From contig CBDBZU010000004.1 of assembly GCA_965213625.1 (NCBI GenBank), positions 320,001 to 384,000 on the forward strand: a DNA stretch of 64,000 nucleotides. Direction: 5' to 3'. Positions 2,826 through 25,447 of this stretch are shown piece after piece. The notes below the pieces were generated by a model. The model saw only the letters and a program-made list of their open reading frames with translations. It did not search any database and had not been told where the DNA came from. Every line of letters starts with the position of its first letter. Positions within the stretch are counted from its first letter, which is position 1. The translations under genes and the position numbers were made by a program. Source of the stretch: a bacterium. GTDB lineage: Bacteria; UBA8248.

Positions 2826-3127
2826 TCAATTCGGCTGGTTTGTCGCTAATCTGCCCGGTAATTCCGGCATGACTTGGGAATTATTCCTGCTGATTTTCTT
2901 TCCTCCGCGAGCTTCCATGTCACGCATAATGGCCTGCGCAGTGAACATTGCCGAACGCAAGAGGTGGGTATCCGCCTCCGTGCGGGGCCATTCGCGGTGC
3001 TCTAGGGCTTCCATCACGAACTCTACCACTGTCGGTTGGGCGACATTTCGCGCTTTTCGGCCTCATTTTCAATTCGTTTCCACTGCTCGGACGTGAAGCG
3101 GATGTTCTTCTGTGTTGTCTGCGCCAT
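2826..3127 (-). pseudogene. Small ribbon-helix-helix-like protein, frameshifted
   Basis: ATG at 3127 gives MAQTTQKNIRFTSEQWKRIENEAEKREMSPNR; a frameshift near 3030 continues as VVEFVMEALEHREWPRTEAD. Confidence 0.5.
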
Positions 3128-3262
3128 TTGTTTTGCCGCTCCTATCGTGAATGTTTTCATCGATTCAGGTCGCAAAATGAACGCAAAATTCCAGTTTTAC
3201 TTTTAGGCCGAACACACTCGTCGCGAACCAGGAAGGTCTCGAATTGGTGCTGGAACTCGACA

Positions 3263-3417
3263 ATACCAAATCGGTATCCATCATAGCGCAGCGCGTGTCT
3301 GGATGCTACCAATTTGGTATCCAGTAGGAAATCCCCGTATTACGCCGAGTTACAATGAGCATACGCCACCTTTAAATGCAGGGATTTCAAGGGGTTCGTG
3401 TGCTACCAGATTGGTAT
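3263..3417. promoter_or_regulatory. Three imperfect palindromic boxes TACCA-N3/4-GGTAT
   Basis: ATACCAAATCGGTAT 3263-3277, TGCTACCAATTTGGTAT 3304-3320, TGCTACCAGATTGGTAT 3401-3417. Confidence 0.6.
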
Positions 3418-3853
3418 TGCTTTTCCGGTGTGAAGGAGGGGGTATTTAGCGTCGTTTGCGCAAGGAACTGCATGCCGGGCGCGCGCCTGTCCTGCACCTG
3501 CACCGAGGTGCGTTCCGGTGTGCTGAAAGAAGCGCCGAAGGGCGGCAAGCGTAGGGATCTTCGGGGATGCGAGTCGGGGGAATTTTGCCGGCGAGATTGG
3601 CGAGCGGGAGCGGTCGCGGCGATTGAGCGGGAAGAAGCGAGAGGCAAGAGAGTGTGAGAGCGCTGGAACTTGTACTTCCCATCACAAGCGAGAGGCGTAC
3701 GGAGACGCGGGTCTTGCGCATCGAATCATAAGCGGCGGGCGAGCAGGACGCATTAGCTTGTGTTTTTTTCACAAGCAGACGGACGACACGGGAGGTGAAG
3801 GGCCGCGCCGCCATGTTGACGGGAATGGCGACGCGACCCGTTGAGCGTTCGCA

Positions 3854-4807
3854 TCAGGCGACGATTTTCTGGACGGGGATGCCGAGGGTTTTAGCTTTGT
3901 CGACGAGGTTGTCGGTGATGCCCGAGCCGGGGAACGCGATCACGCCCTTTGGCAGGAGAGCGAGCAGCTCGTCGTTGCGCCTGAAGGGAGCGGCCCGTCC
4001 ATGCGCTTCCCAGTCCGGCTTGCATACCACCTGATGAACGCCGTTTCGCTCGGCCCATCCCGCCGCTATCTTCTCCGCACCCGGGCCGCCACCGTGGACG
4101 AGGACGACGTCGGCGTACTTGGCCTTGACCTTGTCGAGGTGGCCGATGATTTTGCCCGCATCGTTCGCCTCCTTCCCGCCCGCGACGGCGACGAGGGTTC
4201 CCTGGGGCAAGTGGGCGGTGTTCGCGCGGTCTTTTCTGGCGCGCTGGAAGTCGCGCGCCTCAATGACGGCGGAGGTGAGCTTGCCGGTCTGTGAGACGTG
4301 GGAACCTCGCCTCGGCCGCCATACCTCGCCGGTCTCGATGCGGTAGGCCTCTGCGGCCGTGTCCCTGAGTCCCTCGAACGCATCGCGCCTGTCATTCAAG
4401 TTCTGTGCGCGGTCGGTCTTGAGTTCGAGTTCGCGCGATCTGATCTCGGAGCCGTCCTGCTCGCGCTGGAGTTCGCGGATGCCGGGGATGAGTCTGTCGG
4501 CGGCGCGGTCGAGCCGCTGTGTCTGGGCGTCGAGGGCGTTGACGAAGCCCCAGAGGAGGCTCGCCCGCTCGTCGGCGAGTTGGGTGCCGTCGGGTGCTGC
4601 TTCCGCGAGCGCGCCGAAGGCCCTGATGACGGCGGCGGTTGCCTCGCCCTCGTCCCACACGGGGCGGTTGTCGAACTCGTCCGGCCCAGGCGTTGCGCCG
4701 AACAGGGCGGCCTGTTCGCAGACCATGGCGGTGAAGGATTCGTTCTGCGCTTCGTGTTCCGTGTGCTCGTGCATGATCATCTCCTTGTGGTCGTGTGTAG
4801 CGGTCAT
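3854..4807 (-). CDS. DUF2493 (YspA-like SLOG) domain protein
   Basis: C-terminal VAVAGG...VLVHGGGPGAEKIAAGWA...GRAAPFRRNDELL...VIAFPGSGIT; helical N-terminus as in mobile-element DUF2493 proteins. Confidence 0.8.
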   Translation of the reverse strand: MTATHDHKEMIMHEHTEHEAQNESFTAMVCEQAALFGATPGPDEFDNRPVWDEGEATAAVIRAFGALAEAAPDGTQLADERASLLWGFVNALDAQTQRLDRAADRLIPGIRELQREQDGSEIRSRELELKTDRAQNLNDRRDAFEGLRDTAAEAYRIETGEVWRPRRGSHVSQTGKLTSAVIEARDFQRARKDRANTAHLPQGTLVAVAGGKEANDAGKIIGHLDKVKAKYADVVLVHGGGPGAEKIAAGWAERNGVHQVVCKPDWEAHGRAAPFRRNDELLALLPKGVIAFPGSGITDNLVDKAKTLGIPVQKIVA

Positions 4808-4828
4808 CGTTCACTCCTTCGGTTGTCC

Positions 4829-5200
4829 TCAAGCGAGGGGATGGTTGAATTCAGGAAGAGCGTAGCCACGCTCGTTGCGCCCCACTTCCCTGGGCATCTC
4901 GTCGAGATATTTGGCTGCCCACTCGGCGGCGCGCGCGAGTACGTCGCCGTGGCACGGGAGGGGATGGCAGTGGCAACCGAGTTCGCAGCCTTGGAGGTCG
5001 GCGAGTTCGTGGAGGTCCAGTTCCTGGCGCTGGATTTTTTCCCACAGCCATTGGCGGTATTTTTCGATGACGGCGTCGCGGTCGCCGTCGGGGCCGACAC
5101 GGAAGGGATTTCCCCACTTCGTCATGCGGTCGATCCTCACCAGCAAGCCGCTGCCGGGTTCATCGACATATGTGTTCAGGTTCACCACGGTGGTATCCAT
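4829..5200 (-). CDS. DUF4326 domain protein
   Basis: IDRMTKWGNPF...DRDAVIEKYRQWL...LGCHCHPLPCHGDVL; RBS aaggag. Confidence 0.85.
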   Translation of the reverse strand: MDTTVVNLNTYVDEPGSGLLVRIDRMTKWGNPFRVGPDGDRDAVIEKYRQWLWEKIQRQELDLHELADLQGCELGCHCHPLPCHGDVLARAAEWAAKYLDEMPREVGRNERGYALPEFNHPLA

Positions 5201-5235
5201 GCCTTTCTCCTTTCGAGAGAGTTAACGGATGCGCT

Positions 5236-5438
5236 TCTTGGCGCCTCATTTTCAGCACGTAAGGGCATCGGGTGGTGTTGCCGATGCCCGTAGGCGGGCG
5301 AATCAAGGGCCTGTCATTTTCCGGGGGGTTCCCGAAAAACACGTTTCATCGTTTTTTGGGGGGGTACCGGCAAATGATGGCCGCTTGCGGCCACCCTTTA
5401 TTCGCCCGGCGTTCGTGCTAAAATGAGGACGCTAAGAG
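5236..5438 (-). promoter_or_regulatory. Long fold-back, candidate Frpo-type ssDNA promoter for DUF4326-DUF2493
   Basis: Arm 5236-5310 pairs with arm 5394-5438; the right arm reads TTTATT-N16-TAAAAT with a TG extended -10. Confidence 0.6.
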
Positions 5439-5760
5439 AGAGACACCAGTACCGCCACCGGGACACAAGAGCTTCTGGGTGTTTCACGATGAAGGCGAAG
5501 CTCATCGGGAAACAATCTCTCATGCTGCGGAAAGGGTCATTTCGGGCCGTTTTTTCCGGCCCGAAATTCCCGCAGCGGGGGGTGGACCGAGCCACTGTCT
5601 TGAGCATGGAATGATTACAGGCGCATGCCGATCTTCCGTGAACATGGTTCATCGTTCACGGAACCGGAGATTCTTCAGGAGTTCCCTGTAGACGAGAGAA
5701 GCAGGCAGGGCGGGAAAGGCGCGGGCGCTTCGGCGGTGGACTTCCTCTGGATAACGAGCG

Positions 5761-5790
5761 AAAAAAAAGGCCGACGCCGAAGCGCCGGCC
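5761..5790 (-). terminator. Rho-independent terminator after ssb
   Basis: Minus strand ggccggcgc-ttcg-gcgtcggcc followed by T8. Confidence 0.8.
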
Positions 5791-5800
5791 CTTGAAGCAC

Positions 5801-6235
5801 TCAAAATGGGATGTCTTCCCCGACTACGCCTGCGGGCACCGCCGCCGCCTCGGCGTGTGCGCCGTTGCCATTCCCGTTCCCGTTCACCTTGTCCAGGAAC
5901 TGCACCCGCCCGCCGGGTGCTACGAGGATCTCGGTCGAGAACCGGTCCGAGTCCTCCTCGTCCTTCTTCCATCGGCGGGTCTGGAGTTTGCCCGCGACGT
6001 AGACCAGGCGGCCCTTTTTCGCGTGCCGCTCGAACATGTCCACCAGGCCGGGCTGGAAGGTCACGACCCGGTGCCACTCCACCTTCTCCACCCGATCACC
6101 CGTCTGTTTGTCCACGTAGCCCTCGTCGGTGGCGATGGATAGATTCGCGACGCGCCCCCCGCTCGCGAGATGATTGATGGTGACGTCGGCGCCGAGACGC
6201 CCGATCAGTTCCGCACGGTTCAGTCCGAATGCCAT
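5801..6235 (-). CDS. ssb: Single-stranded DNA-binding protein
   Basis: LNRAELIGRLGAD, EWHRVV, VYVAGKLQTRRW, acidic tail EDIPF; RBS aaggag. Confidence 0.95.
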   Translation of the reverse strand: MAFGLNRAELIGRLGADVTINHLASGGRVANLSIATDEGYVDKQTGDRVEKVEWHRVVTFQPGLVDMFERHAKKGRLVYVAGKLQTRRWKKDEEDSDRFSTEILVAPGGRVQFLDKVNGNGNGNGAHAEAAAVPAGVVGEDIPF

Positions 6236-6312
6236 GGTGATTCTCCTTCGTGGTGTGAGTGTGAAAAAGTGACGGGAGGGAGAGAGCCTTTCTCTCACCC
6301 CCCCGGTTCGCC

Positions 6313-6447
6313 CTAGACGCTACAGAACTCCTCCGTCTCGCCTTGCGCCTCGTCGCGCAGCTTGCGGATCGTGTACGCGTCGAGTCCGAGTTCTGCGAGC
6401 AGTTCGTCTGTGCTGGGAACGTCGACGTCGTAGTCGTTCTCGTACAT
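6313..6447 (-). CDS. 44-aa acidic protein (below ORF-track cutoff)
   Basis: RBS gaggagg, then MYENDYDVDVPSTDELLAELGLDAYTIRKLRDEAQGETEEFCSV-stop, upstream of ssb. Confidence 0.6.
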   Translation of the reverse strand: MYENDYDVDVPSTDELLAELGLDAYTIRKLRDEAQGETEEFCSV

Positions 6448-6633
6448 GGCCGTGCCTCCTCTCGGGTTGTCGCCGGCGGCGGGAGCTGGAGACCGTCTCC
6501 CTCTCCCTACCGGGCATTTGCCCGGCTCTCCGCTTCGCTCTGCCTCTCCAACGGAGGGCCACGACCGGTGAGGGATGCTCGCAGACCACGAGCCGGAACT
6601 TGCGTCCGGTCCGGAATTCGTGTCAGATGGGGC

Positions 6634-6993
6634 ATGGACAACCGCAGACGCATCAGGCGGTGCGGCTTATGGGCGCTGGCGCTCCTGTGGCTGCCGCTCG
6701 GGGTGTTCGTGACCGCCGCCGTGCTCTTCTTGACGGCGCCCGAGGCTTGGACGCCGATGCTGCCGTCCTCGGCGCTGTCCCTGGCGCCGTGCGGTCTGTC
6801 CCTCGCCCTGGCTTGCCGACAGCTTTGGATGCTGGGTTACCGCCTGTCCGCCTGGGCGATGGGGGCGGGGCTCGGCGCGGTGACGGCGCTGCTGGTGGCG
6901 GGACTGTCCGGCCCGCTCGCGATAGCCGCCTGGGCGGTCGTGCTCAGCCTCCCGGCCTGGATGATGTGGTGGTGGCTCGCCGGGCGGAACTGA
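6634..6993 (+). CDS. Hypothetical membrane protein (about 4 TM)
   Basis: Hydrophobic Leu/Ala/Trp-rich segments. Confidence 0.55.
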   Translation: MDNRRRIRRCGLWALALLWLPLGVFVTAAVLFLTAPEAWTPMLPSSALSLAPCGLSLALACRQLWMLGYRLSAWAMGAGLGAVTALLVAGLSGPLAIAAWAVVLSLPAWMMWWWLAGRN

Positions 6994-7062
6994 AGCCGGC
7001 CAGCGCCGGGCCGGCTGCGGAGCAGAGCGAGCGGCGATCCCTCCCTCCCCGCTCGGTTCCGG

Positions 7063-7365
7063 TCCGCCGTCGGGCGGGCGCTCGAGTCCCTGCTCGATAC
7101 CGTGACCCGTTCCCTGAAGGAAGGGGAGCGCGTTTCCCTCGCCGGATTCGGCACGTTTTCCGTATCGAGGCGGGCCGCGCGCAATGGCCATAACCCCCGG
7201 ACCGGCGAGAGGGTCGCGATCAAGGCGCGCAATGCGCCGAGGATCTCGGCGGCCAATGGCCTCAGGGACGCGGTAAAAAAAACGCAGGGGATCGCAAGAG
7301 AAGGCCCCGGCCATACGCATGGGGGCCGGCGGCACGTGCCCGGCGACCCGCCGGAGGGCTTCTAG
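7063..7365 (+). pseudogene. HU/IHF-family DNA-binding protein lacking its N-terminus
   Basis: GRALESLLDTVTRSLKEGERVSLAGFGTFSV..RAARNGHNPRTGE; first helix and start codon absent. Confidence 0.75.
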
Positions 7366-8171
7366 TACCCCGTCATGCTCGACATGAGAGGCTTGTCTGA
7401 CAGGACCTCGACTTCTTCCCGGGAGAGCCTTTCGAAGGCGAGGCACATGGCGACTTCTTCCCAGGAGTCCCAAGGACCGTGCTCGGCGCCCGTGGCGAGT
7501 TCAACCACGGTGTAGCGCGTCGGATGGATGGGCATTCCCTTGTGCTCGCCCGAGGAGAAATACGATCGGCGGGCGCAACACTCGCATCTCGCGGCTCCGT
7601 TCGCCGGTTCGGCGCAGTCCACGCAAAGCGACCGGGCCCGCCTGTCGGCGTACCGCACCCGGCTCGCGGCGTTCTTTCGCGGACGGCGCCTTGAATCCCT
7701 TGCGGCGCACGAAGCGCAAGTAGAAGCGTTGTCGATGACTTCCGCCCCGCACCGTCCGCATCGCCCCCCGGCGCGCCTTTCGGCGTAGAGCTTCCTCTCG
7801 GCCGCCCGGCGATCTTCGCGGCAGGGCGCGCAGACCGCGCTCCCTTCGACGGGCGCCTGCCGTCCGCACATCGCACAGAGGCCCGCCTCGCGTCGTTCGC
7901 GCCTTCGCCTCCTGTTCCTCTCCCGCGCCATGCGCCGGCGGCTCTCGGGATCCCGCCCGCCATATCGAGTACCCTCTGATTTGGCTCTGGCGTATCGGGC
8001 TTGTTCGGACTTGCGTCCTCTCTCGAGGCAGTTCGCGCAGAGGCTTCGCCCGGGCGCGGGAGGATGTTTGCCGCACCTGGGGCACATGCCCCGCGCGCGG
8101 CGCTCGGCCGCCCGCCTCCTGTGGCGTTCGCGTTCTCTCTCGCGTCGAATAACCGGATCCTTGTAGGGCAT
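7362..8171 (-). CDS. Arg-rich protein with repeated CxxC..CxxC zinc-finger-like units
   Basis: MPYKDP start; four units (GMCPRCG..LCANC, GLCAMCG..VCAPC, GRCGRCG..TCASC, LCVDC..RCECC); RBS gaggg. Confidence 0.7.
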   Translation of the reverse strand: MPYKDPVIRRERERERHRRRAAERRARGMCPRCGKHPPAPGRSLCANCLERGRKSEQARYARAKSEGTRYGGRDPESRRRMARERNRRRRRERREAGLCAMCGRQAPVEGSAVCAPCREDRRAAERKLYAERRAGGRCGRCGAEVIDNASTCASCAARDSRRRPRKNAASRVRYADRRARSLCVDCAEPANGAARCECCARRSYFSSGEHKGMPIHPTRYTVVELATGAEHGPWDSWEEVAMCLAFERLSREEVEVLSDKPLMSSMTGY

Positions 8172-9286
8172 GCCGTCTCCCTCTCTGGGTGGATGGAATC
8201 CGTGCGGCCGGCGCCGGGCCGGGAACACTCACCGGCACAGCATCTTTCCCCAGACGAGGTTTTCGCCCCACAGTTGAAGCCCGCTATCGGGAACCTTGAG
8301 CCCCGTGCAGACGATGAGTTCGTCCCGCGCGGGCCGCATCTCCCGGACCGCCCGGCGCGAGGCGGTCGCGCGCTTGCTCCTGCGCCCGCCCTCCTCCCCG
8401 GCGGGCAGGGGCATGAGCTCGCCCCCTCCCGAGGATTTGTAGCGCCTGACCTCGTATCGATCATCCGCCAGGCCAAGGCCTGAGAGATGGGTGAGGAAGG
8501 TGTTCGCCGGTGGATTGGGTGTCTTGATCGCGTGAGCCTCCTTGCTGTGGGTGGTCGGGAAGGCGAAGAACGCTCTCCGGGCGCCCTTCCGCCACCCCCT
8601 GACGGCCCGGCTCCGCCTCTCGCCGGAGCGAGGCCCGGGGGAGATGCGCGATGAACGGCCGTCCGCGACCTACGGCGTTTCGTTTCGGGCGCGCGGCGAA
8701 AAAAAAGATCATACCCCCGCGCAACCTGTCGCATGCGAGGGCGCGTATGGCGAGAAAACGCAGGAAACTGGATATATAAAATCCTTGCAAACGGTTTTTT
8801 TTTGCTTATTTTGTCATAGATGCGGGCGACGCGAGCCCCCAACCGCATGACGCCGGAGGATCGGAGCGAAAGGTTCGAACGCAAAGGAAGAGACGCATAT
8901 GAAAGAAAGCGGCGGGAGTTGTCCGGCTTCACAGGAACACTGCCGCCCCAAAAGGCGAGGTACCGAAATTCCGCCATCTCGATTCCCAGGCGCATGGCCG
9001 GGCATCTTCGCGAATGGGGCCGTTGAAAAAGGACTGGGTCCGTGATTCGGCTCGTGGACACTTTACGCCCGGGAGGGGAGGTCCAGAGATACCGGGACGC
9101 AAGCAACCGGATTTGTTCTCGGCCGGTTCGCTTGAGGAGTTGATTTTCGAGGATCATGTATTGCCCGCGTGAACCTCATTCTCGATTCGGGTTGTCTGAG
9201 TGAGGCGCTGGTTCACCGGATTCGGTCCTGAGGAAAGGTTGTTGGAGCATTCACTGAAACCAATTTATCATTCGGAAATAACCTCC

Positions 9287-9609: not shown

Positions 9610-10764
9610 ATGACGGATCAGAAGACGAAGACCGAGATCGCATCGGTCGAACGCCGCAATTTCCTCAAGCTGGCGGGGGCAAGCGGCATCACGGCGGCGC
9701 TGGTGGCGGCCGGAACCGGGGCGCTCACTTCGAGCAAGGCCATGGCGCAGTCGTCCAGGGAGGAAGCCCAGCGCCGTCGCACCGCGAAGTACACCATGAC
9801 GATGGCGACAGCCTACGTTCTGACGGCGGACCGCAGCTATCCCATCATGCAGCTCGACTTCAAGGAGAACATCCAAAACGCGACCAACGGCAAGGTCTAC
9901 GTCAAGCTGGCGCCGGGAGGCCAGCTGGGTGCCGGCGGGGCGTTGGCCCAGAAGGTGCAGAGCGGCACGATCCAGGCGGCCCAGCATTCACTTTCGAATT
10001 TCGCTCCCTTCGCGCCGGTCGTCGACCTCATCAACCTGCCCTACCTGTGCGGAGCCAACCAGCGCTTCGTGAACCTGGTGAGCTCGGACCACTGGAAAAA
10101 GACTATCCACCAGAAGGTCGAGGCGCGGGGATTCAAGCCGCTCTACTATATCGTCATCGACCCGCGGGTCGTGGCGGTCCGTAAGGGCGGAGCGGGCGCG
10201 GTCATCAAGCCCGCCGACCTGAAAGGCGTGAAGTTCCGGGTTCCCGGCTCGAAAATGCTGCAGCAATACTACCGCCTGGTCGGCGCCAACCCGACGCCGG
10301 TCGCCTGGGGCGAGACTCCCTCGGCGATCAAACAAGGCGTGGCGGACGCGCTCGATCCGGCGGTCGGCGCGCTTTTCGTCTTCGGTTTCAAGGACATCCT
10401 GAGCCATGTCACCTTCACCCAGGCGGTTCCCGACAGCCAGGTCTTTTCGTGCAATCTCAAGTGGTTCAACTCGCTTCCGGGCGACGTGAAAGACGGAATC
10501 GAGTTCGCCTCTGAGATTACGTCGCAGCAGAACCTCGCCAAGGTGCCGGCGGCGCGCAACTACGCGATGGCGGAGCTGAGAAAGTCCGGCGTCAAATTCC
10601 ATTCGCTCAGCGAAGAGCAACTGAAGGTCTGGAAAGAGGCGGGCGGCTACCAGCGCTCCGAGTGGGACGGGTTCAAGACGAAGCTGGCCGGCTCCATGGA
10701 CTCGTTCAATAAACTGGTCGAAGCCGCCGACACGCAGAGCCGCCACTACGTTCACGACGCCTAA
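9610..10764 (+). CDS. hpsK: TRAP substrate-binding protein DctP, HpsK-like (DHPS uptake)
   Basis: Tat signal RRNFLK; DctP motifs KFRVPGS and PTPVAWGE; context with hpsP-like gene and hpsN/O relic. Confidence 0.7.
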   Translation: MTDQKTKTEIASVERRNFLKLAGASGITAALVAAGTGALTSSKAMAQSSREEAQRRRTAKYTMTMATAYVLTADRSYPIMQLDFKENIQNATNGKVYVKLAPGGQLGAGGALAQKVQSGTIQAAQHSLSNFAPFAPVVDLINLPYLCGANQRFVNLVSSDHWKKTIHQKVEARGFKPLYYIVIDPRVVAVRKGGAGAVIKPADLKGVKFRVPGSKMLQQYYRLVGANPTPVAWGETPSAIKQGVADALDPAVGALFVFGFKDILSHVTFTQAVPDSQVFSCNLKWFNSLPGDVKDGIEFASEITSQQNLAKVPAARNYAMAELRKSGVKFHSLSEEQLKVWKEAGGYQRSEWDGFKTKLAGSMDSFNKLVEAADTQSRHYVHDA

Positions 10765-10768
10765 ACAG

Positions 10769-10801
10769 AAGAGCCCGGCGGCGCGCGCCGCCGGGCTCTT
10801 T
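10769..10801 (+). terminator. Stem-loop between dctP and dctQ
   Basis: aagagcccggcggc-gcgc-gccgccgggctcttt. Confidence 0.7.
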
Positions 10802-10833
10802 CGCTCCATTGAACTCCGGAAGGAGGGGCGACC

Positions 10834-11340
10834 TTGCTCGACTCGCTGAACAGGAACATCGAGCGTCTGGCGCTGCTGTTTTTCTACACAATGCTGGTCG
10901 CCACCATGGCGGTAGAGGTGGTGCGCCGCGAGGTCTTCGCATATTCGTCCATCTGGGGCGAGGAGATCGTCCGCTACGCGTTCATTTACCTCGTCTGGAT
11001 TGGAGCAGCTTCGGCGGTGCGGGAGCGGGCGCATATCCGCATCGACGTCATCTTCAACTACGTCGGGCCGCGCACCAAGTCCGTGCTCTACATCTTCGGC
11101 GACCTGGTGATGCTGGCCATCGCCGTCATCTCCGTTTGGTGGTCGTTCGAGACCGTTACGGTGTCCTGGAAATTCGGCTCGGTCAGCCATGGCCTTCGAA
11201 TGTCGATGGTCTGGTTCCTCGCCGCCGTGCCAATCGGTTTTTCGCTGCTGGTTTTTCGTCTCATCCAGTCGCTCATTCGCGATATCGCAGACTTGCGCGC
11301 AGGCTCCTCCCTCTACGAGGGCGGCAAGCTGTTCGACTAA
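10834..11340 (+). CDS. hpsL: TRAP small permease DctQ
   Basis: WGEEIVRYAFIYLVWIGA..HIRID; 4 TM. Confidence 0.7.
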   Translation: MLDSLNRNIERLALLFFYTMLVATMAVEVVRREVFAYSSIWGEEIVRYAFIYLVWIGAASAVRERAHIRIDVIFNYVGPRTKSVLYIFGDLVMLAIAVISVWWSFETVTVSWKFGSVSHGLRMSMVWFLAAVPIGFSLLVFRLIQSLIRDIADLRAGSSLYEGGKLFD

Positions 11341-11361
11341 GGGGGTCCGGGGGAGACGCCG

Positions 11362-12693
11362 ATGCTCTGGAACCAGATGCAGCAAGCACATCAGGCGATT
11401 GGTTGGGATTTCTACGGCCCGGTCATCTTCTTTGTGGTCCTGGTTGCGCTGGGCGTCCCCATCTGGGCCGCGATCGGCGGCGGCGCGGTGGCGATGCTCC
11501 TCGTTTCGGGCGTTCTCCCCCTGTCGCTGCTCGGCGAGAGCCTCTTCGACGGAATCGACCATTTCGCCTTGACCGCCGTGCCCCTGTTCATCCTGACGGG
11601 CGACGTGCTGGTGCGCACCGGCCTCAGCCGCAAGTTCCTCGACGTGGCGGAAGCCCTGACCTGCTGGGCGAGAGGCGGCTTCGGCTCCGCCACGGTGCTG
11701 GTGTGCGGCATGTTCTCGGCCATTTCGGGTTCTGATGCGGCGGGCGCCGCCGCGGTGGGCCGCATGACGATCGCGCGACTGGTCGAATCGGGCTACCCGC
11801 GTCCCTACGCCTGCGCGCTCGTGGCGGCGGGCGCGTGCACGGGCATCCTCATTCCGCCTTCTATCGCCTATATCATCATCGGGCTCGTGCTCGGCATATC
11901 CGCCTCCACGCTCTTCCAGGCGGCGCTGATCCCCGGCATTCTGATTCTCGCGTCCATTCTCATCACGAACATCATCGTCAACCGGCGCTACGCCTATGAG
12001 GGCGGCGGACAGATCTCGGTGGCCGAATGGGCCGCCAATCTCAAGAAGGCGCTCAAGAACGGCTGGTACGCCTTCATCGTCCCCGGCGTGATTTTCTGGG
12101 GAATATTTTCGGGCCAGTTGACGCCGACCGAGGCGGGCGCGACCGCCGTGGTCATCACAATCATCATGGGCTTCATCCTAGGCACGCTGAAGTTCTCGGA
12201 CTTCCCGGCGATGCTGGTGAGTTCGGCGAAGGTCAACGGCGTCATCCTGCCTATCATCGCCTTCTCCCTGCCGCTCGCCCAGACCATGGCGGCGCTCGGC
12301 GTGCCCCAGGGGTTCGTCCATACGGTCACGTCGGTGACGGACAATCCCTATGTGCTGGTCCTGCTGATGATCGCCATCCTCATTGCGGCCGGTTGCGTGA
12401 TGGAGACCACGCCCAACATCGTCATCCTGGCGCCTATCCTGAAGCCCCTGGCCGATGAAATCGGAATGAACGAGATACAGTTCTGCGTGATGATGATCAC
12501 CGCGCTCGGCGTGGGCTTCATCACGCCTCCGCTCGGCCTCAACCTGTTCGTCGTCTCCGGCCTGACGGGCGACTCAATCCTCGATATCGCCGCGCGCGCG
12601 GTGCCCTTCGTCTTCTTCATGCTGCTGGTGGTGTTGCTGATCGCCTACGTCCCGTGGGTCTCCACCGTGCTACTGTCCGCAGCATACAAATGA
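11362..12693 (+). CDS. hpsM: TRAP large permease DctM
   Basis: AVPLFILTG, ISGS..A, GILIPPS, TPTEAG, ITPPLGLNLFV. Confidence 0.75.
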   Translation: MLWNQMQQAHQAIGWDFYGPVIFFVVLVALGVPIWAAIGGGAVAMLLVSGVLPLSLLGESLFDGIDHFALTAVPLFILTGDVLVRTGLSRKFLDVAEALTCWARGGFGSATVLVCGMFSAISGSDAAGAAAVGRMTIARLVESGYPRPYACALVAAGACTGILIPPSIAYIIIGLVLGISASTLFQAALIPGILILASILITNIIVNRRYAYEGGGQISVAEWAANLKKALKNGWYAFIVPGVIFWGIFSGQLTPTEAGATAVVITIIMGFILGTLKFSDFPAMLVSSAKVNGVILPIIAFSLPLAQTMAALGVPQGFVHTVTSVTDNPYVLVLLMIAILIAAGCVMETTPNIVILAPILKPLADEIGMNEIQFCVMMITALGVGFITPPLGLNLFVVSGLTGDSILDIAARAVPFVFFMLLVVLLIAYVPWVSTVLLSAAYK

Positions 12694-12699: not shown

Positions 12700-13004
12700 G
12701 ATGCTCCTGAACTGTCCTGGGCATTCGGGTGATCGTTCGGCCGAGGACGCTTGAGAGTGGGAGCAATCGTGTCGGAAATCCTCGGCGAGACCGGAGCGGG
12801 CGGCGATCCGTTAGCGTTCAACTCGGCGCTGTCTGATTCTACGGAGACAGTGACGCGCGCGACGAACCACGAGTCCAGACCTGTAACGATCCGAACAGAA
12901 CACTCGAATATCTGCTCGGTCCTGCGCTTTTTCTCAGTTTGGCTGCGGCCGGCCATGTCACCGGTCATGTCCACTGCTTCGATAGAAGGCGCCCCGTGAG
13001 ATGA
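12700..13004 (+). pseudogene. Fused relic of an hpsN-like N-terminus and an hpsO-like SDR C-terminus
   Basis: VGAIVSEILGETGAGGD (histidinol-dehydrogenase-like N-terminus); then QTC..TLEYLLGPALFLSLAAAGHVTGHVHCFD (SDR C-terminus), whose TGA overlaps the next ATG. Confidence 0.55.
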
Positions 13005-13987
13005 AAGCGCTCGTCTATACCGGTCCCGAAACTCTTGAATACCGCGATGAGCCGGATCCCGATATTGGCGAAAACGCGTTGATCCGAGTCGCTCATGTAG
13101 GCGTCTGCGGTTCGGACATGCATGCATGGGCCGGCCATGACGAACGCCGCCCGGCGCCCCTGATCCTCGGCCACGAAGTGTCCGGATCCGTGGTGGAGGG
13201 ACCAGGCGCCGGCAGTCGCGTCGCGGTCAATCCACTTGTGACCTGCGGCGCTTGCGTAGTCTGCCGCTCGGGACGGGAGAATCTTTGCGCGACACGACAG
13301 ATCATCTCCATGCCGCCGCGCGAGGGGGCTTTCGCCGAACTGCTCGCGATGCCGGTTGAAAACCTCATCTCGATCCCGGACGGAGTTCCGACCGAGAAAG
13401 CCGTTCTCACCGAGCCTTTGTCATGTGGATGGCATGCGGTGCGCCTGGCGCAGAGGTTTTTGGACAGGCCGATCAGCGAAGCGCGCTGCCTCGTCATTGG
13501 GGGCGGCGCGATCGGCCTCGGCGCCGCACTCGTGCTGAACGACCGGTCTGCGGCCGAAATCCACATCGGAGAAATCAACCCCTCGCGTCGTGACATCCTC
13601 TCTCGCGCCGGGGAGTTTCGGGTCTACGACCCATCGTCGGGAAAGGACCCGGAAGCCGTCGATCTGGTCATCGACGCGGTTGGGTTCGAGGCGACTCGCG
13701 CATTGGCGTCCGCCGCTGTACGGCCTGGAGGCGCGATCCTCCATATCGGCTTGGGCTCTGCGGCGGGCGGCCTCGACATCCGCCGCATGACGCTTCAGGA
13801 AATCGCCTTCATCGGCGCCTATACCTACAGCACCGCGGATTTTCGCGAAACCGCGGAGGCGATCTTCTCAGGCCGCCTCGGAGCGCTCGACTGGACCGAT
13901 ATCCGTCCGCTGTCGGAGGGCGCCCGCGCCTTCTCCGATATCAGTTCAGGCCGCGCAGCCGCGCCCAAAATAGTTCTTGCGCCTTAA
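13001..13987 (+). CDS. hpsP: Zn-dependent alcohol dehydrogenase, HpsP-like
   Basis: GVCGSD, GHE, CxxCxxC...C structural Zn site, GGGAIG; follows hpsKLM. Confidence 0.7.
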   Translation: MKALVYTGPETLEYRDEPDPDIGENALIRVAHVGVCGSDMHAWAGHDERRPAPLILGHEVSGSVVEGPGAGSRVAVNPLVTCGACVVCRSGRENLCATRQIISMPPREGAFAELLAMPVENLISIPDGVPTEKAVLTEPLSCGWHAVRLAQRFLDRPISEARCLVIGGGAIGLGAALVLNDRSAAEIHIGEINPSRRDILSRAGEFRVYDPSSGKDPEAVDLVIDAVGFEATRALASAAVRPGGAILHIGLGSAAGGLDIRRMTLQEIAFIGAYTYSTADFRETAEAIFSGRLGALDWTDIRPLSEGARAFSDISSGRAAAPKIVLAP

Positions 13988-14432
13988 GAACGCCGGTGTT
14001 TTACGACTGTACGATGCTCAATGTAATGCGTTCGCAAGTGCCCCTTTGCTCGAAGATCACCCTGCGTTACGGTGCGGCAATCGAGGCTCCTGGTGTGGCG
14101 GGAACAAGCTTGGTGCGGGCGGGGTGCTTTGTTGTTGATGTTCCCCTTATGGAGAGCGCCTTGGATAAGCATGGCCACCTCATGGGTGCGTATCGCTGCT
14201 GACATGGTTTGAGGAGGCTGGGTAGTGCGCGCTCAGGATCGGTTGCCTGTCGAAGGCGTTAACGGACACGGAGGTGTTGGTGCTTCATGAGAAACCTGCG
14301 CTCTTAGGAGCGCATCGACGCGATTCGTGATGGGGCGAGGAGCGGCGATGTATGTAACGGCACGATAAGTGGTGCTGTGAGAACTATCTGAGCGAGGCGA
14401 AGAGTTGGAACGGGCTGGGGAGCAACGTAAAG

Positions 14433-15669
14433 TTATTTCCTGCCTAACCGTGGTGACGCTGACCCCGGAGACGGCGGGCGGCGCTCCCGCCAGCCTTCCA
14501 GCATGTTCTCCGCGATGCTCCCGGTGACCCGCTCGGCCGCCTCCTGCGCCGAGTCGCGCGCGAGGTGCGCGTAGCGCGCCGTCGTTTCCATCTTGCTGTG
14601 GCCCAGGAGCTTCCCTATCACGGGGAGCGCCTCGCCGAGCGCGAGGGCCCGCGAGGCCCAGGAGTGGCGCAGGTCGTGCAGCCTCACGTCCCCGAGGCCC
14701 GCGCGCTCCCTGATGAGATGCCAGGCCTCGTCGATGTTCACAAGGTGCGTCCCGGGCTTCCTGCCCGGAATGACCCAGGGGCCGTCGTGGGTGCCAAGGA
14801 GACTTCTGAGGAGTTCGACCGCCTCAGGCGGCAGCGGGATCACCCGCGCGCCCGTCTTGGAATCGGGCAGCCTGAGCTCGCCCGCTTCGAGCGCTACGTC
14901 CTCCCGGCGCAGCTTGAGTATCTCGCTCCTGCGGCACCCGGTAAGGGCCAGGAGCCGGATCGCCGCCACCGCGACGCGGACGCGTCGCCCCGGGCCTCCG
15001 CCTCCTCGAGTGCGCGTCCCAGGCGGGTGAACTCAGAATCCGTCAGGAACCGCTCGCGCCTGCGCTCGGGGTATTTCACGAGAGCCTTGCAGGGGTTCGA
15101 GGTTCCCTCGGGAACCATTCCCCAGCCCGCGGCCAGGCGGTACATCGAGGAGAGGATGCGGAGCGCCATGTTCGCCACCGCGGGCGTCTCGTACAGGCTC
15201 TCGTGGAACTCCGCCACCTGCGCGCGCGAGAGCGCAGCGATCGGCGCCCTGCCCAGGGCGGGCAGGACGTGGCGGTGATCACCGAGCGGTAGAGCGCGGC
15301 GGTGGCCGGCTTGCACCGCACCGCGACGTATTCGGCGAGGTAGCGCGCGCACACCTCATTCACCGTGGGGCCGCCCACAGGCTTCATCGGCTTTGGAACC
15401 GCCTCCTCGCCCGCCTTGATCCTCGCGATGATGTGGGCGGCGCGTTTCCTCGCCTCATCGGCGTTGATCACCCCGTGGCGGCCCACCGCCACCCTCTTGG
15501 GACCCTCAGGCCCCCGCGCCTGGGCGATGTAGACTTTTGAGCCTGTGGGATAAACCCGCACACCGAAGCCGGTGAGTTCCCGGTCCCAGAAGACCGTGTC
15601 CTTCTCCACCGCGAGTTTCGCGACCGCGCGGTTGGAAAGCGTCCCGTATTTCGTCTTCGCCATCTTCAC
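14433..15669 (-). pseudogene. Tyrosine integrase 2 (Arm domain), two single-base frameshifts
   Basis: Three frames join into one integrase: FWDRELTGFGVRV, TGCRRSEI, HDLRHSWAS, LLGHS..TTARY; shifts near 15280 and 14972. Confidence 0.85.
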
Positions 15670-16844
15670 CCGGCCCTCCCGTTGGTGATGTGAATCCCGA
15701 TGCTCCCGCCCACCCTTACCGCCGCCTCCCTCTCGGCCTCTCGCATCAGGTGCGCGTAGCGCGCGCTCGTCGCCACGCTCGTGTGGCCGAGCAGTTTGCC
15801 TATCGTGTATAAACTCTCGCCCAGCGCCAGCGCCCTCGACGCGTAGGAATGCCTGAGGTCGTGGATGCGCACGTCATGGAGTCCCGCCCGCTCCCTTACG
15901 GGCCGCCAGTAGTGGTGCAGGCCCGTGAGATGCTTCCCGGCCCTCTGGCCCGCTATCACCCAGGGATTGTCCTCAGAGCGGGGGATGGCGTCCAGTATCC
16001 TGAGGGCGGGCCTCGTCAGGGGGACCATGCGGGGACCCGCCTTGGCGTCCCTCAAGCGCAGATCCCCCGCCGTGCGGTCCACGTCGTCCCAGCGCAACGA
16101 GAGGATCTCGCCCCTGCGGCACCCGGTCAGGACGAGCAGCCGGATGGCCGCGATAGCGGGCGGCCATATCCCGTCCTCGTCCTCGGCTTGCCTGAGCGCA
16201 CGGCCCAGGCGCCGGTATTCCTCAGGCGTCAAAAACCGCTCGCGCACCCGCGTCCTGTAGCGGCGCACGGCTAGGCAGGGGTTCCGCCCGGGGGGGACCA
16301 GTTCCCACGCCTCGGCAAGGGTGTACATCCGCGAGAGCAGATGGACGGCCGCATTGGCCCGGGCGGGCGTGTCCCTGAGCCTGTGATGGAGCGCCGTGAC
16401 TTGCGCCCCGCCCACTTCTTCCAGTCCCATCCCGCCCAGGGCGGGCAGGATGTATTTGCCCAGCACCGTGCGGTACGCCGAGGCGGTGGCCGGCTTGAGA
16501 TGCCGCTCCACGTGGGTGCGCATGAAGCGCTCGGCGAGTCCCGCCACGGTGGACTCCGCTTCTGGCAGTTGAGTTACCAGCTCCTCGCCCCGCTTGATTC
16601 GGTCGATAATGAGGGCGGCCTGTTTCCTGGCCTCGTCGACGGTCAACTCCCCGTGGCGGCCGAGCGTCACGCGTTTGGGACCCGATGGTCCTCTGGACTG
16701 CACCACCCAGGTCTTCCGGCCCGTGGTGTGGACGCGCACACCCAGGCCCGCCAGTTCCCGGTCCCAGAAGACCGCGTCCTTCCCGTCGGCCTCGAGCGCG
16801 TCGACGGTGCGCTTGGTGAGCTTCAGTTCGCTTCGCTTCGGCAT
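15666..16844 (-). CDS. Tyrosine integrase 1 with Arm DNA-binding domain
   Basis: FWDRELAGLGVRV, TGCRRGEI, HDLRHSYAS, LLGHT..SARY. Confidence 0.92.
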   Translation of the reverse strand: MPKRSELKLTKRTVDALEADGKDAVFWDRELAGLGVRVHTTGRKTWVVQSRGPSGPKRVTLGRHGELTVDEARKQAALIIDRIKRGEELVTQLPEAESTVAGLAERFMRTHVERHLKPATASAYRTVLGKYILPALGGMGLEEVGGAQVTALHHRLRDTPARANAAVHLLSRMYTLAEAWELVPPGRNPCLAVRRYRTRVRERFLTPEEYRRLGRALRQAEDEDGIWPPAIAAIRLLVLTGCRRGEILSLRWDDVDRTAGDLRLRDAKAGPRMVPLTRPALRILDAIPRSEDNPWVIAGQRAGKHLTGLHHYWRPVRERAGLHDVRIHDLRHSYASRALALGESLYTIGKLLGHTSVATSARYAHLMREAEREAAVRVGGSIGIHITNGRAG

Positions 16845-16849
16845 CCTTC

Positions 16850-17090
16850 CTCCAATATATGTAATCATAACGCATACGTACGGCATGATACAGGAGGGTA
16901 TCAGAGCATACGTGTGACGAAAGCGCAAGGGGGGGTCGGGGTGAGGAATAACAGAAATATAGTATTATAAACAATCAGTTATCGTAGACAAACAGAGTCA
17001 ATCGTACTATTGCGCGGCCACGGGGTTCATGACAATAATTAATCGAAATTTTCAGAAATTCCGACTCATCCCGACTCAGCGCCTCACGCG
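16850..17090. mobile_element. Probable right end (att region) of the integrative element
   Basis: AT-rich; GCATACGT twice, IHF-like aaacaatcagtta, CCGACTCA twice; host-type genes resume beyond it. Confidence 0.45.
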
Positions 17091-19321: not shown

Positions 19322-19323
19322 GG

Positions 19324-21108: not shown

Positions 21109-21287
21109 GAAAATATCTCTCCTTCGCTTTGGTGTACGGAAAGGGCGGAAAACACGCCCCCTCATTCCGCGATACGGGGAATTTGAGTGCAAGTTTTACA
21201 TGAGTTTCCCGCTTTTTGGTAAAGGTGTTGGCGGATCGACTCAACCCCGCATGCGTGGGGCAATCGCGAGGAGGAATTGTCCTTTAC

Positions 21288-21598
21288 ACCCCTCCCCCCC
21301 CGACAAGGGGCTGTTGAAAACCCCGTTTCGGAAACAGCCGGCATGGAGATTCACGTGGCGTGGGCGAGCGCGATGGTTTGTAGGGACAACCCTCCGTGGT
21401 TGTCCTGCCTTCCGTGGTTATCTTTTACCAGGACAGGCACGGAGGCCTGTCCCTACGGTGAACAATTCGATAATTGGAATTCCCTCCTCACTTGAGGGTT
21501 TTTCAACAACCCTGACAAGGGGGGACAGGGGGGTTGCCTTTCCCGTCGAGAGGGGCGACCCCTCCACCCCCTGAAAAAGGGACTGTTTCAACAGCCCT
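21288..21598. mobile_element. Nested MITE/REP structure
   Basis: Inverted ends GGGGCTGTTGAAAA (21307) and TTTTCAACAACCCT (to 21513) flanked by a GACAA duplication; internal GTAGGGAC REP doublet 21380-21456; extra end TTTCAACAGCCCT 21586-21598. Confidence 0.7.
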
Positions 21599-21727
21599 TC
21601 TATACTTCGATTCCTTGGTGCGGTTCTCCCGGCGTTGGTGGTACTGTGGCTATTCATTGCGAGAAGCCGGGCCACTAAAATGCCGCTCGAAGTTCCCGGA
21701 TACGGCTGAGCCATTGCTCCATGGAGG

Positions 21728-23779: not shown

Positions 23780-23799
23780 GACGGGCAAAGACGAGATTC

Positions 23800-24050
23800 A
23801 TTCCCCCCTTGAGGGGTCGGGCATCCCGAGGGGAATGCCCGATGGAAAAGCTCTCCTGACCTCATCCTGAGTAGCGGTGAAGCCGCGTATCGAAGGATGC
23901 CCTCTCGCCCGGCGCGAGGCGTTCGACTCCCCTCGCCCTTCGATACGCCGCCTTCGGCGGCTACTCAGGGTGAGGAAAGAGGCGTTGGCGGTTTGCGTGA
24001 TTTGAACGCGACTGGGGAGGGGCCGTAGGGACAGGCCTCCGTGCCTGTCC
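23800..24050. repeat. Cluster of three REP-like families
   Basis: CCCCCCTTGAGGGG 23803; CCTCATCCTGAGTAGC...GCTACTCAGGGTGAGG 23860-23975; GTAGGGACAGGC..GCCTGTCC 24025-24050. Confidence 0.75.
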
Positions 24051-25445: not shown

Positions 25446-25447
25446 CC

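Follow-up and report, generated by a model that had tools for sequence, protein, structure and literature searches.

The DNA analysed here (the window, 64,000 nt in its full length) carries an island in which a YspA/DUF2493 gene and a DUF4326 gene lie between a predicted oriT core and a long hairpin, with an element-borne ssb on the other side of the hairpin. The features are as follows.

2826-3127, minus strand: RHH-like (ribbon-helix-helix) gene on the lagging side of oriT, frameshifted here, the frame breaking near 3023-3029
3261-3420, strand not assigned: a TACCAAAT(C/T)GGTA-like inverted repeat, present three times in the interval from the RHH-like gene to nic
3500-3522, plus strand: oriT core, a 5-bp hairpin GCACC-GA-GGTGC, then GT-TCC-GGTGT, with the predicted nic at 3522/3523
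3854-4807, minus strand: YspA/DUF2493 gene of the SLOG family (PF10686, E 4e-22; GC3 0.83)
4829-5200, minus strand: DUF4326 gene, rhodanese-phosphatase-like (PF14216, E 5e-25; phrog_464, E 1.5e-33), the gene immediately downstream of the hairpin
5201-5242, minus strand: predicted 5′ leader, about 40 nt in length; a GGAG precedes the ATG by 7 nt, and the start is predicted near template position 5242
5236-5438, plus strand: branched hairpin of design A, a candidate promoter in single-stranded DNA (from fold and conservation)
5236-5309, plus strand: template arm of the hairpin, with the bulged C5253 and a side hairpin at 5263-5289
5316-5378, plus strand: A/T-rich apical stems of the hairpin
5379-5392, plus strand: side hairpin of the right arm
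5397-5402, 5416-5417 and 5419-5424, plus strand: −35 TTTATT, TG and −10 TAAAAT of the non-template arm (from the sequence)
5440-5720, plus strand: conserved non-coding stretch, with a covarying hairpin at 5525-5575
5766-5793, minus strand: intrinsic terminator of ssb (12-bp stem and T run), separating ssb from the DUF4326 operon
5801-6298, minus strand: element-borne ssb (PF00436, E 1e-23; TIGR00621, 96 bits), the next leading-region gene after the hairpin
6994-7365, plus strand: gene of an HU/IHF-like DNA-binding protein (PF00216, E 1.2e-21)
7362-8228, minus strand: gene with four CxxC...CxxC zinc-ribbon repeats (from the translation; zinc-ribbon matches weak)
14433-16928, minus strand: two tyrosine integrase genes in tandem, lying at the island's far end; int1 (15666-16928) is intact, int2 (14433-15669) is broken by stop codons

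The ORFs at 7373-9157 and 6667-7473 were rejected as wrong-frame artefacts of GC-rich DNA, judging by their translations and GC3; a protein search with ORF 7373-9157 returned only its self-match. A role in the processing of ADP-ribose derivatives has been proposed for DUF4326 (PMC9503650). The YspA gene would be the second in the predicted hairpin-driven operon and the first to enter a recipient, and the position of the −10 element places the predicted transcription start near 5242. The intact 107-aa homologue of the RHH-like protein (own-genome copy c201k, 833-1156) gave a sub-threshold match to the NikA-like family PF21983 (E 0.0065, 17 bits versus a cutoff of 27); the protein may be a relaxosome accessory protein, and the inverted repeats at 3261-3420 may serve as putative accessory-protein binding sites. 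Within the conserved stretch at 5440-5720, two pairs show changes in both partners, and changes in one partner alone mostly give T.G on the plus strand. This stretch may be a second single-strand element.

The plus strand of 5236-5438 folds into a long branched hairpin, and all the pairings listed in the first-pass annotation of this DNA were found in the sequence. CCTCATTTTCAGCACG (5244-5259) pairs with CGTGCTAAAATGAGG (5414-5428), leaving a single bulged C at 5253, and CGGGCGAATCAAGGG (5295-5309) is 93% complementary to CCCTTTATTCGCCCG (5394-5408), to which it pairs with a single mismatch, C.T. Further stem pairings join TCATTTTCCGG to CCGGCAAATGA and CCCGAAAAAC to GTTTTTTGGG, while a side hairpin in the left arm is formed by GGGCATCGG (5263-5271) and CCGATGCCC (5281-5289). 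The same annotation had named a stable single-stranded fold as a check on its proposal, and this was borne out in three designs of the hairpin. The plus strand (271 nt) folds at −75.3 kcal/mol versus −43.9 ± 3.9 kcal/mol in 200 dinucleotide shuffles, giving a z-score of −7.97 for design A; the values for designs B and A-long are −8.59 and −10.53, and in each case 0/200 shuffles were as stable. The minus strand of the hairpin region folds at −68.6 kcal/mol (z −6.89).

The 300 nt at 5241-5540 reach −83.4 kcal/mol and pass the threshold of < −75 kcal/mol per 300 nt given in the screening procedure of PMC12672017. A sliding-window energy threshold was nevertheless dropped as a detector, since ordinary GC-rich stretches here reach −80 kcal/mol per 300 nt; it does not discriminate in the present GC-rich genome, and the case is therefore carried by the z-score and the comparative evidence. 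No Rfam family matched the hairpin region, and a search upstream of ssb for a second comparable hairpin gave nothing exceptional (z −0.6 and −1.4). The evidence for the function of the hairpin is computational throughout and consists of folding, sequence comparison and gene order.

The 3′ arm, which pairs with the 5′ arm, carries promoter-like boxes, and in the copies described below they read TTTATT or TTGACC, a spacer of 15-16 nt and TGcTAAAAT. For the window copy, the arrangement TTTATT-N16-(TG)-TAAAAT that had been claimed for the right arm was confirmed, with TTTATT at 5397-5402, 16 nt of spacer, TG at 5416-5417 and TAAAAT at 5419-5424; the three-way junction of design A falls within the −35/−10 spacer, an arrangement that the polymerase would have to tolerate. 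The −35 of design A is weak (3/6 match, taking the promoter specificity of the uncultured host's polymerase as assumed), and the right arm of design B, TTGACC-N15-TGcTAAAAT, gives a 10/12 match plus the TG. Just downstream of the −10, most copies have C.A at one stem position, a mismatch on the plus strand and a wobble on the minus strand. Taken alone, the motif TGNTANAAT is no rarity (2 occurrences in the window versus 2.1 expected); the significance lies in the fold and the conservation, not in the motif.

The leftward −35/−10 spacing had been described as wrong in duplex DNA, and indeed the minus-strand hexamers TTGATT (5306-5301) and GAAAAT (5253-5248) stand 47 nt apart. The further claim that the spacing is right only in the folded state holds for designs A and A-long (34 of the 62 copies, with the 47-nt duplex spacing); it applies less well to design B (28 of 62), in which the side hairpin is lacking. 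The gene-facing duplex hexamers of design B, cTGACg and GAAAAT separated by 18-19 nt, are poor as a promoter, though not impossible. The right arm in duplex form is still a rightward extended −10 promoter, near-consensus in design B, and may fire rightward; the notion of silence in the duplex is thus limited to the gene-facing direction. A scan of 4700-6500 for duplex promoters matching at least 9/12 found none.

Altogether, 62 distinct copies of the hairpin were gathered from 14 genomes of one genus (17 of design A, 17 of A-long and 28 of B). Matches occurred in 13/22 other genomes of the genus, in 0/14 from other genera of the family and in 0/24 outside the family. The element family has multiplied, with 10-19 matches per genome; the own genome holds 11 hairpin copies, all of them between ssb and DUF4326 and none isolated, and the integrase pair recurs beside most copies of the module. 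The outer stem, in which TGcTAAAAT faces a template arm with one bulged C, is nearly invariant across the three designs: CGTGCTAAAATG is exact in 60/62 copies and CATTTTCAGCACG in 61/62. The inner, −35-bearing half is wholly different in A and B, which nonetheless share a common fold plan.

Compensatory changes in homologous elements, the comparative check put forward in the first-pass annotation, were also found. Over the 34 A and A-long copies and 74 pairs, 99.6% of cells are paired, and 7/74 pairs have changed on both sides, a number reached by 0/500 shuffles and compared with 0-3 in slid controls, although the copies are closely related and the shuffle statistics thus overstate independence. 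All 55 one-sided stem changes in these copies produce G.T on the plus strand (55/55), and the plus-strand fold beats the minus-strand fold in 34/35 copies folded, with a mean difference of 5.3 kcal/mol. Alignment of arm against arm was rejected as proof of strand bias, as the side hairpins misalign and the counts are rough only. Wobble-pair counts were rejected too, because a structure derived from one strand biases the counts towards that strand, as seen at 5440-5720 (93 versus 4 on the plus-derived structure, 14 versus 101 on the minus-derived one); we therefore relied on the variable pairs only.

The direction of transfer follows from the predicted nic (marked by a slash). An F-type nic motif lies at 3510-3522 on the plus strand, once in the window versus 0.15 expected. 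In 48/48 distinct loci, GCGT-N2-3-GGTGT/R follows a covarying 5-bp hairpin on the strand that forms the big hairpin, and the nic-side stem takes the covarying forms GCAGC with GCTGC (23), GCATC with GATGC (18) and GCACC with GGTGC (4) in 45 of the 48. The exact F 12-mer TGCGTGGGGTGT occurs in 10/48 distinct loci and was located on the T strand of the F oriT (14158-14169 of the F stretch examined); among the TraI substrate oligonucleotides described in PMC2504302, this 12-mer ends at the F nick site. A MOB_F-like nic core as in F (GCGTGGGGTGT/GG) is thus seen on the predicted transferred strand, and an inverted repeat is present just 5′ of nic, like IR2 of R388, which we saw in the R388 sequence itself; the overall similarity of the oriT core to the R388 site was not significant. 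Similarity between element copies breaks at the predicted nic. The assignment of nic is a prediction from sequence likeness to F.

The predicted nic lies 1.6-1.8 kb 5′ of the big hairpin (1595-1776 nt for 10/11 own-genome copies, about 1.7 kb for the window copy), and at this distance the hairpin is not the oriT core. A nic motif on the plus strand marks the plus strand as the predicted transferred one, leaving rightward, so that the YspA and DUF4326 genes would be the first to enter, with the hairpin directly upstream of both. The orientation proposed earlier, with these genes expressed early on entry, is thereby supported, the motif being on the same strand in 48/48 distinct loci.

TrwC-domain relaxases were detected in 5/5 genomes searched, and 27 relaxase-hairpin pairs in these five genomes (270-294 bits) lie within 41 kb, none of them in the window's island. 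In 27/27 neighbouring pairs the hairpin-forming strand also carries the relaxase gene, whereas relaxase and leading genes are co-oriented in F, R388 and three alphaproteobacterial plasmids; by this comparison the minus strand would be the transferred one. That assignment was overturned by the nic motif, which overrides the orientation of the relaxase gene because polarity is set by the nick. An R388-like nic candidate near 5597, TGTCT/TGAGC, was dropped as not conserved among copies. An R388-derived probe gave nothing above shuffled controls save one marginal match inside the RHH-like gene, and the upstream regions of relaxase genes showed no non-coding similarity between different element types. 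F-type TraC, TraN, TraF, TraH, TraD and TraI adjoin one hairpin copy. We take the family to be MOB_F integrative elements, some with an F-type T4SS and most of them probably mobilizable. The window's own copy, which is without a relaxase gene, has a frameshifted RHH-like gene and a broken second integrase, may no longer be mobile.

Frpo and newer non-homologous classes of single-stranded-DNA (ssDNA) promoters are described as driving leading-region genes (PMC9849209, PMC11541004, PMC12672017). The hairpin had been called Frpo-like, and this stands for its placement and proposed function and fails for its sequence, which has no similarity to Frpo or ssi. When design A plus flank (window 5225-5730) and design B were used as blastn queries with 11-base words, no match to Frpo, ssi or PLSDB (72,556 plasmids, including F) appeared at E 0.01. 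Like Frpo1 and Frpo2 of F and ssi1-3 of ColIb-P9/pESBL, the hairpin is a long T-strand stem-loop located in the leading region; it precedes genes that are directed towards oriT and templated by the T strand, with ssb alongside, a candidate MOB_F relaxase in the family and a near-identical nic core. The T-strand fold is the more stable one in F as well (−125.0 versus −114.1 kcal/mol for Frpo1, −119.2 versus −111.6 kcal/mol for Frpo2), and the distance to nic is 1.7 kb here versus about 2.1-2.6 kb for Frpo1. The differences are equally clear. The hairpin is about 200 nt long versus about 320 nt for Frpo/ssi; one arm bears a contiguous −35, spacer and extended −10, whereas our scan of F Frpo gave no linear match of at least 8/12. 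Frpo/ssi also lack its side hairpin, the lone bulged C of its template arm and its interchangeable inner halves, and its carriers are chromosomal integrative elements from an uncultured lineage. The genes predicted to be driven are DUF4326-SLOG instead of ssb/psiB/ygeA, and ssb is upstream of the hairpin here, whereas in the Frpo/ssi systems it is downstream.

The class 2 and class 3 ssDNA promoters of pESBL and F, which the relevant sections of PMC12672017 place upstream of ardA/klcA and M.EcoGIX, are likewise non-homologous leading-region hairpins found by structure, with −35/−10 boxes in the stem. Their lack of homology makes ssDNA promoters a polyphyletic kind. Their start sites are reported there as mapped by 5′ RACE in transconjugants, while the start site here is predicted from sequence.

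The ssoA-type sites of rolling-circle plasmids and sso1 of ICEBs1 offer another parallel, being strand-specific folded ssDNA sites read by the host RNA polymerase, as is proposed here; a priming role is possible for our hairpin too. Classical sso sites are located just upstream of the nick and so are exposed last, and ssoA-type sites carry conserved RS-B and CS-6 motifs. Unlike them, the hairpin lies 1.7 kb 3′ of nic, is exposed early and abuts a translatable operon.

A parallel in gene content comes from the alphaproteobacterial plasmids pCMU01, pNS6003 and MesoLj131b3, in which DUF2493/DUF4326 genes likewise adjoin the transfer genes and are directed towards the relaxase/oriT region. Of four alphaproteobacterial plasmids examined, three have a strongly structured spacer upstream of DUF2493 (z −5.0 to −6.9); another such spacer precedes DUF4326 in pCMU01 (z −4.6), and the template strand is the more stable in all four structured spacers. 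The fourth plasmid has a spacer interrupted by an IS110 element and unstructured. No obvious −35/−10 was found in these plasmid hairpins, which, as far as we can tell, have not been described before.

The fold, its conservation, its strand bias, the gene order and the nic motif, and hence the polarity of transfer, are the observations from which an explanation has to start. We consider it reasonably probable, though well short of certain, that the hairpin is an ssDNA promoter doing the job of Frpo without being related to it by sequence, and that it belongs to the leading region of MOB_F integrative elements. A TrwC/TraI-type relaxase would nick the plus strand after GGTGT (3522/3523), and this strand would enter the recipient 5′ end first, bringing in YspA (SLOG), DUF4326 and then, 1.7 kb from nic, the hairpin. 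Upon folding, the right arm would provide an unbroken non-template strand (TTTATT-N16-TGcTAAAAT here, TTGACC-N15-TGcTAAAAT in design B) and the left arm the template, with the bulged C at the −12/−11 junction and, in design A, the side hairpin extruded. The host sigma-70 polymerase would then start within the stem and run off its base into DUF4326-YspA, a pair that plausibly removes or sequesters nucleotide-derived defence signals, and this transcript could also serve as a primer for the complementary strand. Conversion to duplex DNA would place 47 bp between the gene-facing −35 and −10 and spoil the −10 with an extra base, thereby switching the promoter off. The strong terminator in which ssb ends, upstream of the DUF4326 operon, speaks for the promoter role. 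Recognition by the polymerase, the start site, the shut-off and the gene functions are the parts of this scheme that we infer.

Several other explanations share some of this evidence. The hairpin might be solely a single-strand initiation site of the ssi/sso kind, at which the folded plus strand recruits RNA polymerase or the primosome for a primer, with DUF4326-YspA expressed later from duplex DNA. The fold, the strand bias and the nic polarity fit this equally well; PMC7690428 reports that Frpo was first characterised as a primer-forming site and treats ssi and sso as functionally comparable, and ICEBs1 has an sso according to the description in PMC4595007. Such a site is compatible with the promoter reading, but as the sole function we regard it as unlikely: the hairpin base has a well-positioned ribosome-binding site and ATG at a distance of about 40 nt, no other promoter was found for the operon while ssb ends in a terminator, and a primer placed 1.7 kb in from the T-strand 5′ end would lead to the copying of just those 1.7 kb. 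We assign a similarly small chance to a function in duplex DNA, with the right arm as a rightward extended −10 promoter for an RNA over 5440-5720 and the palindrome as a cruciform or regulator binding site (HU-like or RHH-like). The 10/12 match with TG in TTGACC-N15-TGcTAAAAT of design B, the high conservation of the 280 nt to the right with their covarying hairpin, and the HU-like gene within the module all agree with it. The opposite arm would be dispensable for a duplex promoter, but compensatory changes keep the whole stem paired, side hairpin included, and the one-sided changes favour G.T on one strand, a preference meaningless in duplex DNA. Moreover, no plus-strand terminator or ORF follows, a 2-nt indel between copies breaks the sole candidate frame, and the rightward RNA would run antisense into ssb.

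It is very improbable that the conserved object is an RNA structure (a processing site, attenuator or thermosensor) in a long 5′ leader of DUF4326 within ssb read-through transcripts. The minus strand does fold well (−68.6 kcal/mol, z −6.9), and the position that is C.A on the plus strand would be G.U in the minus-sense RNA. Nevertheless, the 55/55 one-sided changes, which give G.T on the plus strand, would be C.A mismatches in RNA, the minus strand is less stable in 34/35 copies, a strong ssb terminator lies upstream, and the invariant −35/−10 arrangement would have no role in RNA. Just as hard to credit is the absence of any promoter role, the hairpin being a palindrome of a selfish or structural nature, or else a site for recombination or replication, with coincidental hexamers. 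The motif TGNTANAAT is indeed not rare alone, and designs A and B are alike at their ends and not in their middles, which recalls terminal inverted repeats; but 11/11 own-genome copies occupy the same site between ssb and DUF4326, with none found alone, and each of two unrelated inner halves has its −35-like hexamer at a distance of 15-16 nt from the shared −10.

An ssDNA promoter thus being the reading we favour, the comparison with published hairpins by sequence and text suggests a candidate without homology to the known ones, though some published hairpins may resemble it more closely than this comparison shows. The portions of the literature consulted report mapped start sites of ssDNA promoters only for IncF and IncI plasmids of enterobacteria, with other candidates mostly derived from similarity; a narrow literature search found no paper combining 'ssDNA promoter' and 'integrative and conjugative'. 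The present case rests on independent lines, namely the fold, covariation, strand bias and an identifiable F-type nic site, and it concerns chromosomal, integrative elements of an uncultured lineage. The 62 copies in three designs make up a natural experiment on which parts of the promoter are constrained, and DUF4326 and the SLOG protein are early-entry candidates for counter-defence.

A broader reading, which we put forward tentatively and would not yet bet on, is that folded-ssDNA promoters are general and modular in conjugative elements far beyond enterobacterial plasmids. A constant 'clamp' stem (the extended −10 with the bulged template base) would be combined with interchangeable −35/upstream cassettes (A, A-long, B) to gate DUF4326-SLOG as the very first genes expressed, a pair that would destroy or sequester nucleotide-derived immune signals. 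Since the same gene families occur with unrelated template-strand hairpins in alphaproteobacterial plasmids, structure and nic polarity could guide the search for early anti-defence operons in uncultured lineages. In other words, nic polarity together with a template-strand hairpin suggests a search recipe that is independent of homology.

The 200-nt imperfect palindrome at 5236-5438, proposed in the first-pass annotation to be a promoter of the Frpo type (the ssDNA promoters of the F plasmid), contains all the pairings listed there. When folded as ssDNA, the + strand of 5200-5470 (271 nt) reached −75.3 kcal/mol against a mean of −43.9 ± 3.9 for dinucleotide shuffles (z −7.97), none of 200 being as stable; the − strand fold was weaker (−68.6 kcal/mol). 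The 3′ (right) arm indeed reads as a −35 and an extended −10, and the 5′ (left) arm pairs with these elements except for one mismatch, one bulged base and a side hairpin. As claimed, this hairpin spreads the left-arm elements: in duplex DNA, a gap of 47 nt separates the counterpart hexamers of the gene-facing strand. The features of the module are as follows.

3854-4807, − strand, gene for YspA/DUF2493, a SLOG protein
4829-5200, − strand, DUF4326 gene
5253, left arm, bulged C adjoining the −10
5263-5289, left arm, side hairpin of 27 nt
within the −35 pairing, left arm, C.T mismatch
5397-5402, + strand, right arm, −35 TTTATT
5416-5424, + strand, right arm, extended −10 TG-c-TAAAAT, 16 nt after TTTATT
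5801-6298, − strand, ssb
6316-6447, − strand, acidic ORF of 43 aa
6994-7365, + strand, HU-like protein gene
7362-8228, − strand, zinc-ribbon repeat protein gene

The two longest ORFs of the module, 7373-9157 and 6667-7473, were rejected as genes: both are artefacts of the wrong reading frame, with much Arg, Pro, Gly and Ala. The zinc-ribbon and HU-like genes and the 43-aa acidic ORF are the real ones at these sites.

The own genome bears 11 copies of the hairpin, each at the same site of a homologous module. At BLAST sensitivity, 13 of 22 further genomes from the genus had it, and it was not found in 14 genomes of other genera in the family or in 24 more distant ones. The 68 copies collected (62 distinct) fall into three designs: A, to which the window's copy belongs (17), A-long, with an additional apical hairpin of 30 nt (17), and B (28), where the entire inner half is swapped for unrelated sequence, TTGACC-N15-TGcTAAAAT, and the side hairpin is missing. 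All three fold exceptionally well, and their outer stem hardly varies, CGTGCTAAAATG being exact in 60/62 copies and CATTTTCAGCACG, including the bulged C, in 61/62.

In the 34 A and A-long copies, 99.6% of the 74 pairs were paired, and seven pairs were changed on both sides, a number reached in 0/500 column shuffles, with partners slid by 1-3 columns giving 0-3; the covariation expected by the first-pass annotation is thus present, although the copies are closely related, and these and the strand statistics overstate independence. All 55 one-sided changes were G.T on the + strand, equivalent to C.A mismatches if the − strand or a − sense RNA were the folded form. Of 35 distinct copies folded, 34 were more stable as the + strand, with a mean advantage of 5.3 kcal/mol. 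Counter-evidence comes from one position just downstream of the −10, which is C.A in most copies. The + strand structure is under selection. The Frpo1 and Frpo2 regions of F show a similar fold bias, to the transferred (T) strand.

The element family encodes TrwC/TraI-type relaxases, and one copy adjoins F-type TraC, TraN, TraF, TraH, TraD and TraI. In all 27 neighbouring pairs tabulated, the relaxase gene is opposite in strand to DUF4326/YspA, whereas in F, R388 and three alphaproteobacterial plasmids relaxase and leading genes are co-oriented. Relaxase orientation had pointed to the − strand as the transferred one, but this was overturned by a nick site (nic) motif on the + strand, found by aligning the copies past the YspA gene. 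The copies cease to be similar at ~3511-3530, where all 48 distinct loci bear a 5-bp hairpin (three compensating stem variants, in 23, 18 and 4 loci) followed 3′ by GT, 2-3 bases, GGTGT and a purine (48/48). Ten of the 48 carry TGCGTGGGGTGT, an exact 12-mer that also occurs in the F oriT (L072:14158-14169) on the strand complementary to the F leading genes; in the TraI substrate oligonucleotides of PMC2504302, this 12-mer stops at the F nick. The motif lies on the same strand as the hairpin, 1595-1776 nt 5′ of 10/11 own-genome copies. Judged from this motif, the nick is predicted to fall at 3522|3523 of the + strand, which would thus be the T strand, with YspA, DUF4326 and the hairpin entering in this order and the leading genes all pointing to oriT. 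F has the same arrangement, with Frpo1 ~2.1-2.6 kb from nic. The orientation behind the earlier suggestion of early expression on entry is therefore borne out by an F-type motif on the hairpin strand in 48/48 distinct loci. On the lagging side lie inverted repeats and a small RHH-like gene, which has a sub-threshold NikA-like match and is frameshifted in the window copy. One own-genome copy (G000:C4:946800-946830) has GGTAT in place of GGTGT, the sole changed core among the 11, and may no longer be transferable.

We infer the following mechanism. When the T strand is folded, its right arm would supply an uninterrupted non-template strand and its left arm the template, with the bulged C at the upstream edge of the segment needing to melt and, in design A, the extra template-arm bases taken up by the side hairpin. 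RNA synthesis would begin near 5242, inside the stem, and run off at the stem base, with GGAG and then the DUF4326 ATG ~40 nt past the start; the same RNA could possibly also prime. Conversion to duplex would leave the gene-facing hexamers 47 bp apart and a G inserted into the −10. A strong terminator ends ssb, and no other promoter of at least 9/12 was found by scanning 4700-6500.

Once in duplex form, the right arm still resembles a rightward promoter, most of all in design B, and it faces a conserved non-coding stretch with a covarying hairpin of its own. This stretch (5440-5720, 280 nt), which separates the large palindrome from the ssb terminator, equals the surrounding coding DNA in conservation and contains a long hairpin (5525-5575) with two pairs changed on both sides; it may be either another single-strand element or the segment served by the rightward arm promoter. 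Two unrelated interiors, A-type and B, fold to a common plan and put their −35-like hexamer at 15-16 nt from one and the same −10, an agreement that would be difficult to account for if selection did not act on the folded promoter. We consider it reasonably probable that DUF4326-YspA are served by a folded-ssDNA promoter in the leading region, and the original interpretation is supported as far as computation reaches.

Nothing in 72,556 plasmids, F included, resembled the hairpin, and it matched no Rfam family, so that by sequence it is not one of the Frpo/ssi elements. It does fit ssDNA promoters as a functional kind, and, being non-homologous to known members, represents a new variant; according to PMC12672017, non-homologous classes of this kind are already known from hairpin mining followed by 5′ RACE in pESBL. 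The spacer upstream of DUF2493 was strongly structured in 3/4 alphaproteobacterial plasmids examined (z −5.0 to −6.9; the fourth has an IS110 element within it), as was that upstream of DUF4326 in pCMU01 (z −4.6), the template strand being more stable in each, while other spacers of the same plasmid stretches were mostly without structure. The gene-hairpin association may thus be general. No obvious promoter hexamers were seen in the structured spacers of L068, L125 and L126. Counting those near transfer genes including DUF736, z ranged from −4.6 to −8.3, with the template strand more stable in most. The structured spacers upstream of DUF2493, DUF4326 or DUF736 in these plasmids are:

L068: 9882-10215, 17210-17393
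L125: 6910-7274
L126: 6916-7161, 3539-4239, 1012-1613

Processing of ADP-ribose derivatives has been proposed for the DUF4326 protein (PMC9503650). We propose a counter-defence role for DUF4326-YspA, consistent with the enrichment of anti-defence genes on the leading-region T strand reported in PMC11541004.

The integrase-bearing module is amplified: the own genome (4.1 Mb) has 11 copies, and relatives of 4.3-4.6 Mb (G002, G013, G020, G011) have 11-19 matches; the nine genus members that lack matches comprise eight of 2.9-3.7 Mb and one of 8.0 Mb. Tandem arrangement is frequent (e.g. C4:3481000-3517000). At G000:C4:3449650-3476332 (L069, L070), genes for Cas_GSU0053, Cas3 and Cas4 come after an F-type T4SS with TraD and a TrwC-type relaxase. 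The whole group lies on the lagging side with respect to the nic of copy c3482k, so that this CRISPR-Cas set is carried within the conjugative element. In some copies (e.g. L122) the relaxase gene lies ~4 kb past the hairpin; similarity of the window's island to other copies stops near 8917, and the relaxase position is occupied by a TRAP transporter DctPQM (9610-12693) and a zinc alcohol dehydrogenase (13001-13987). Past the integrase, two hydantoinase/oxoprolinase A + B gene sets and one class-III aminotransferase (17189-27508) appear to be ordinary metabolic genes of the chromosome, external to the island.
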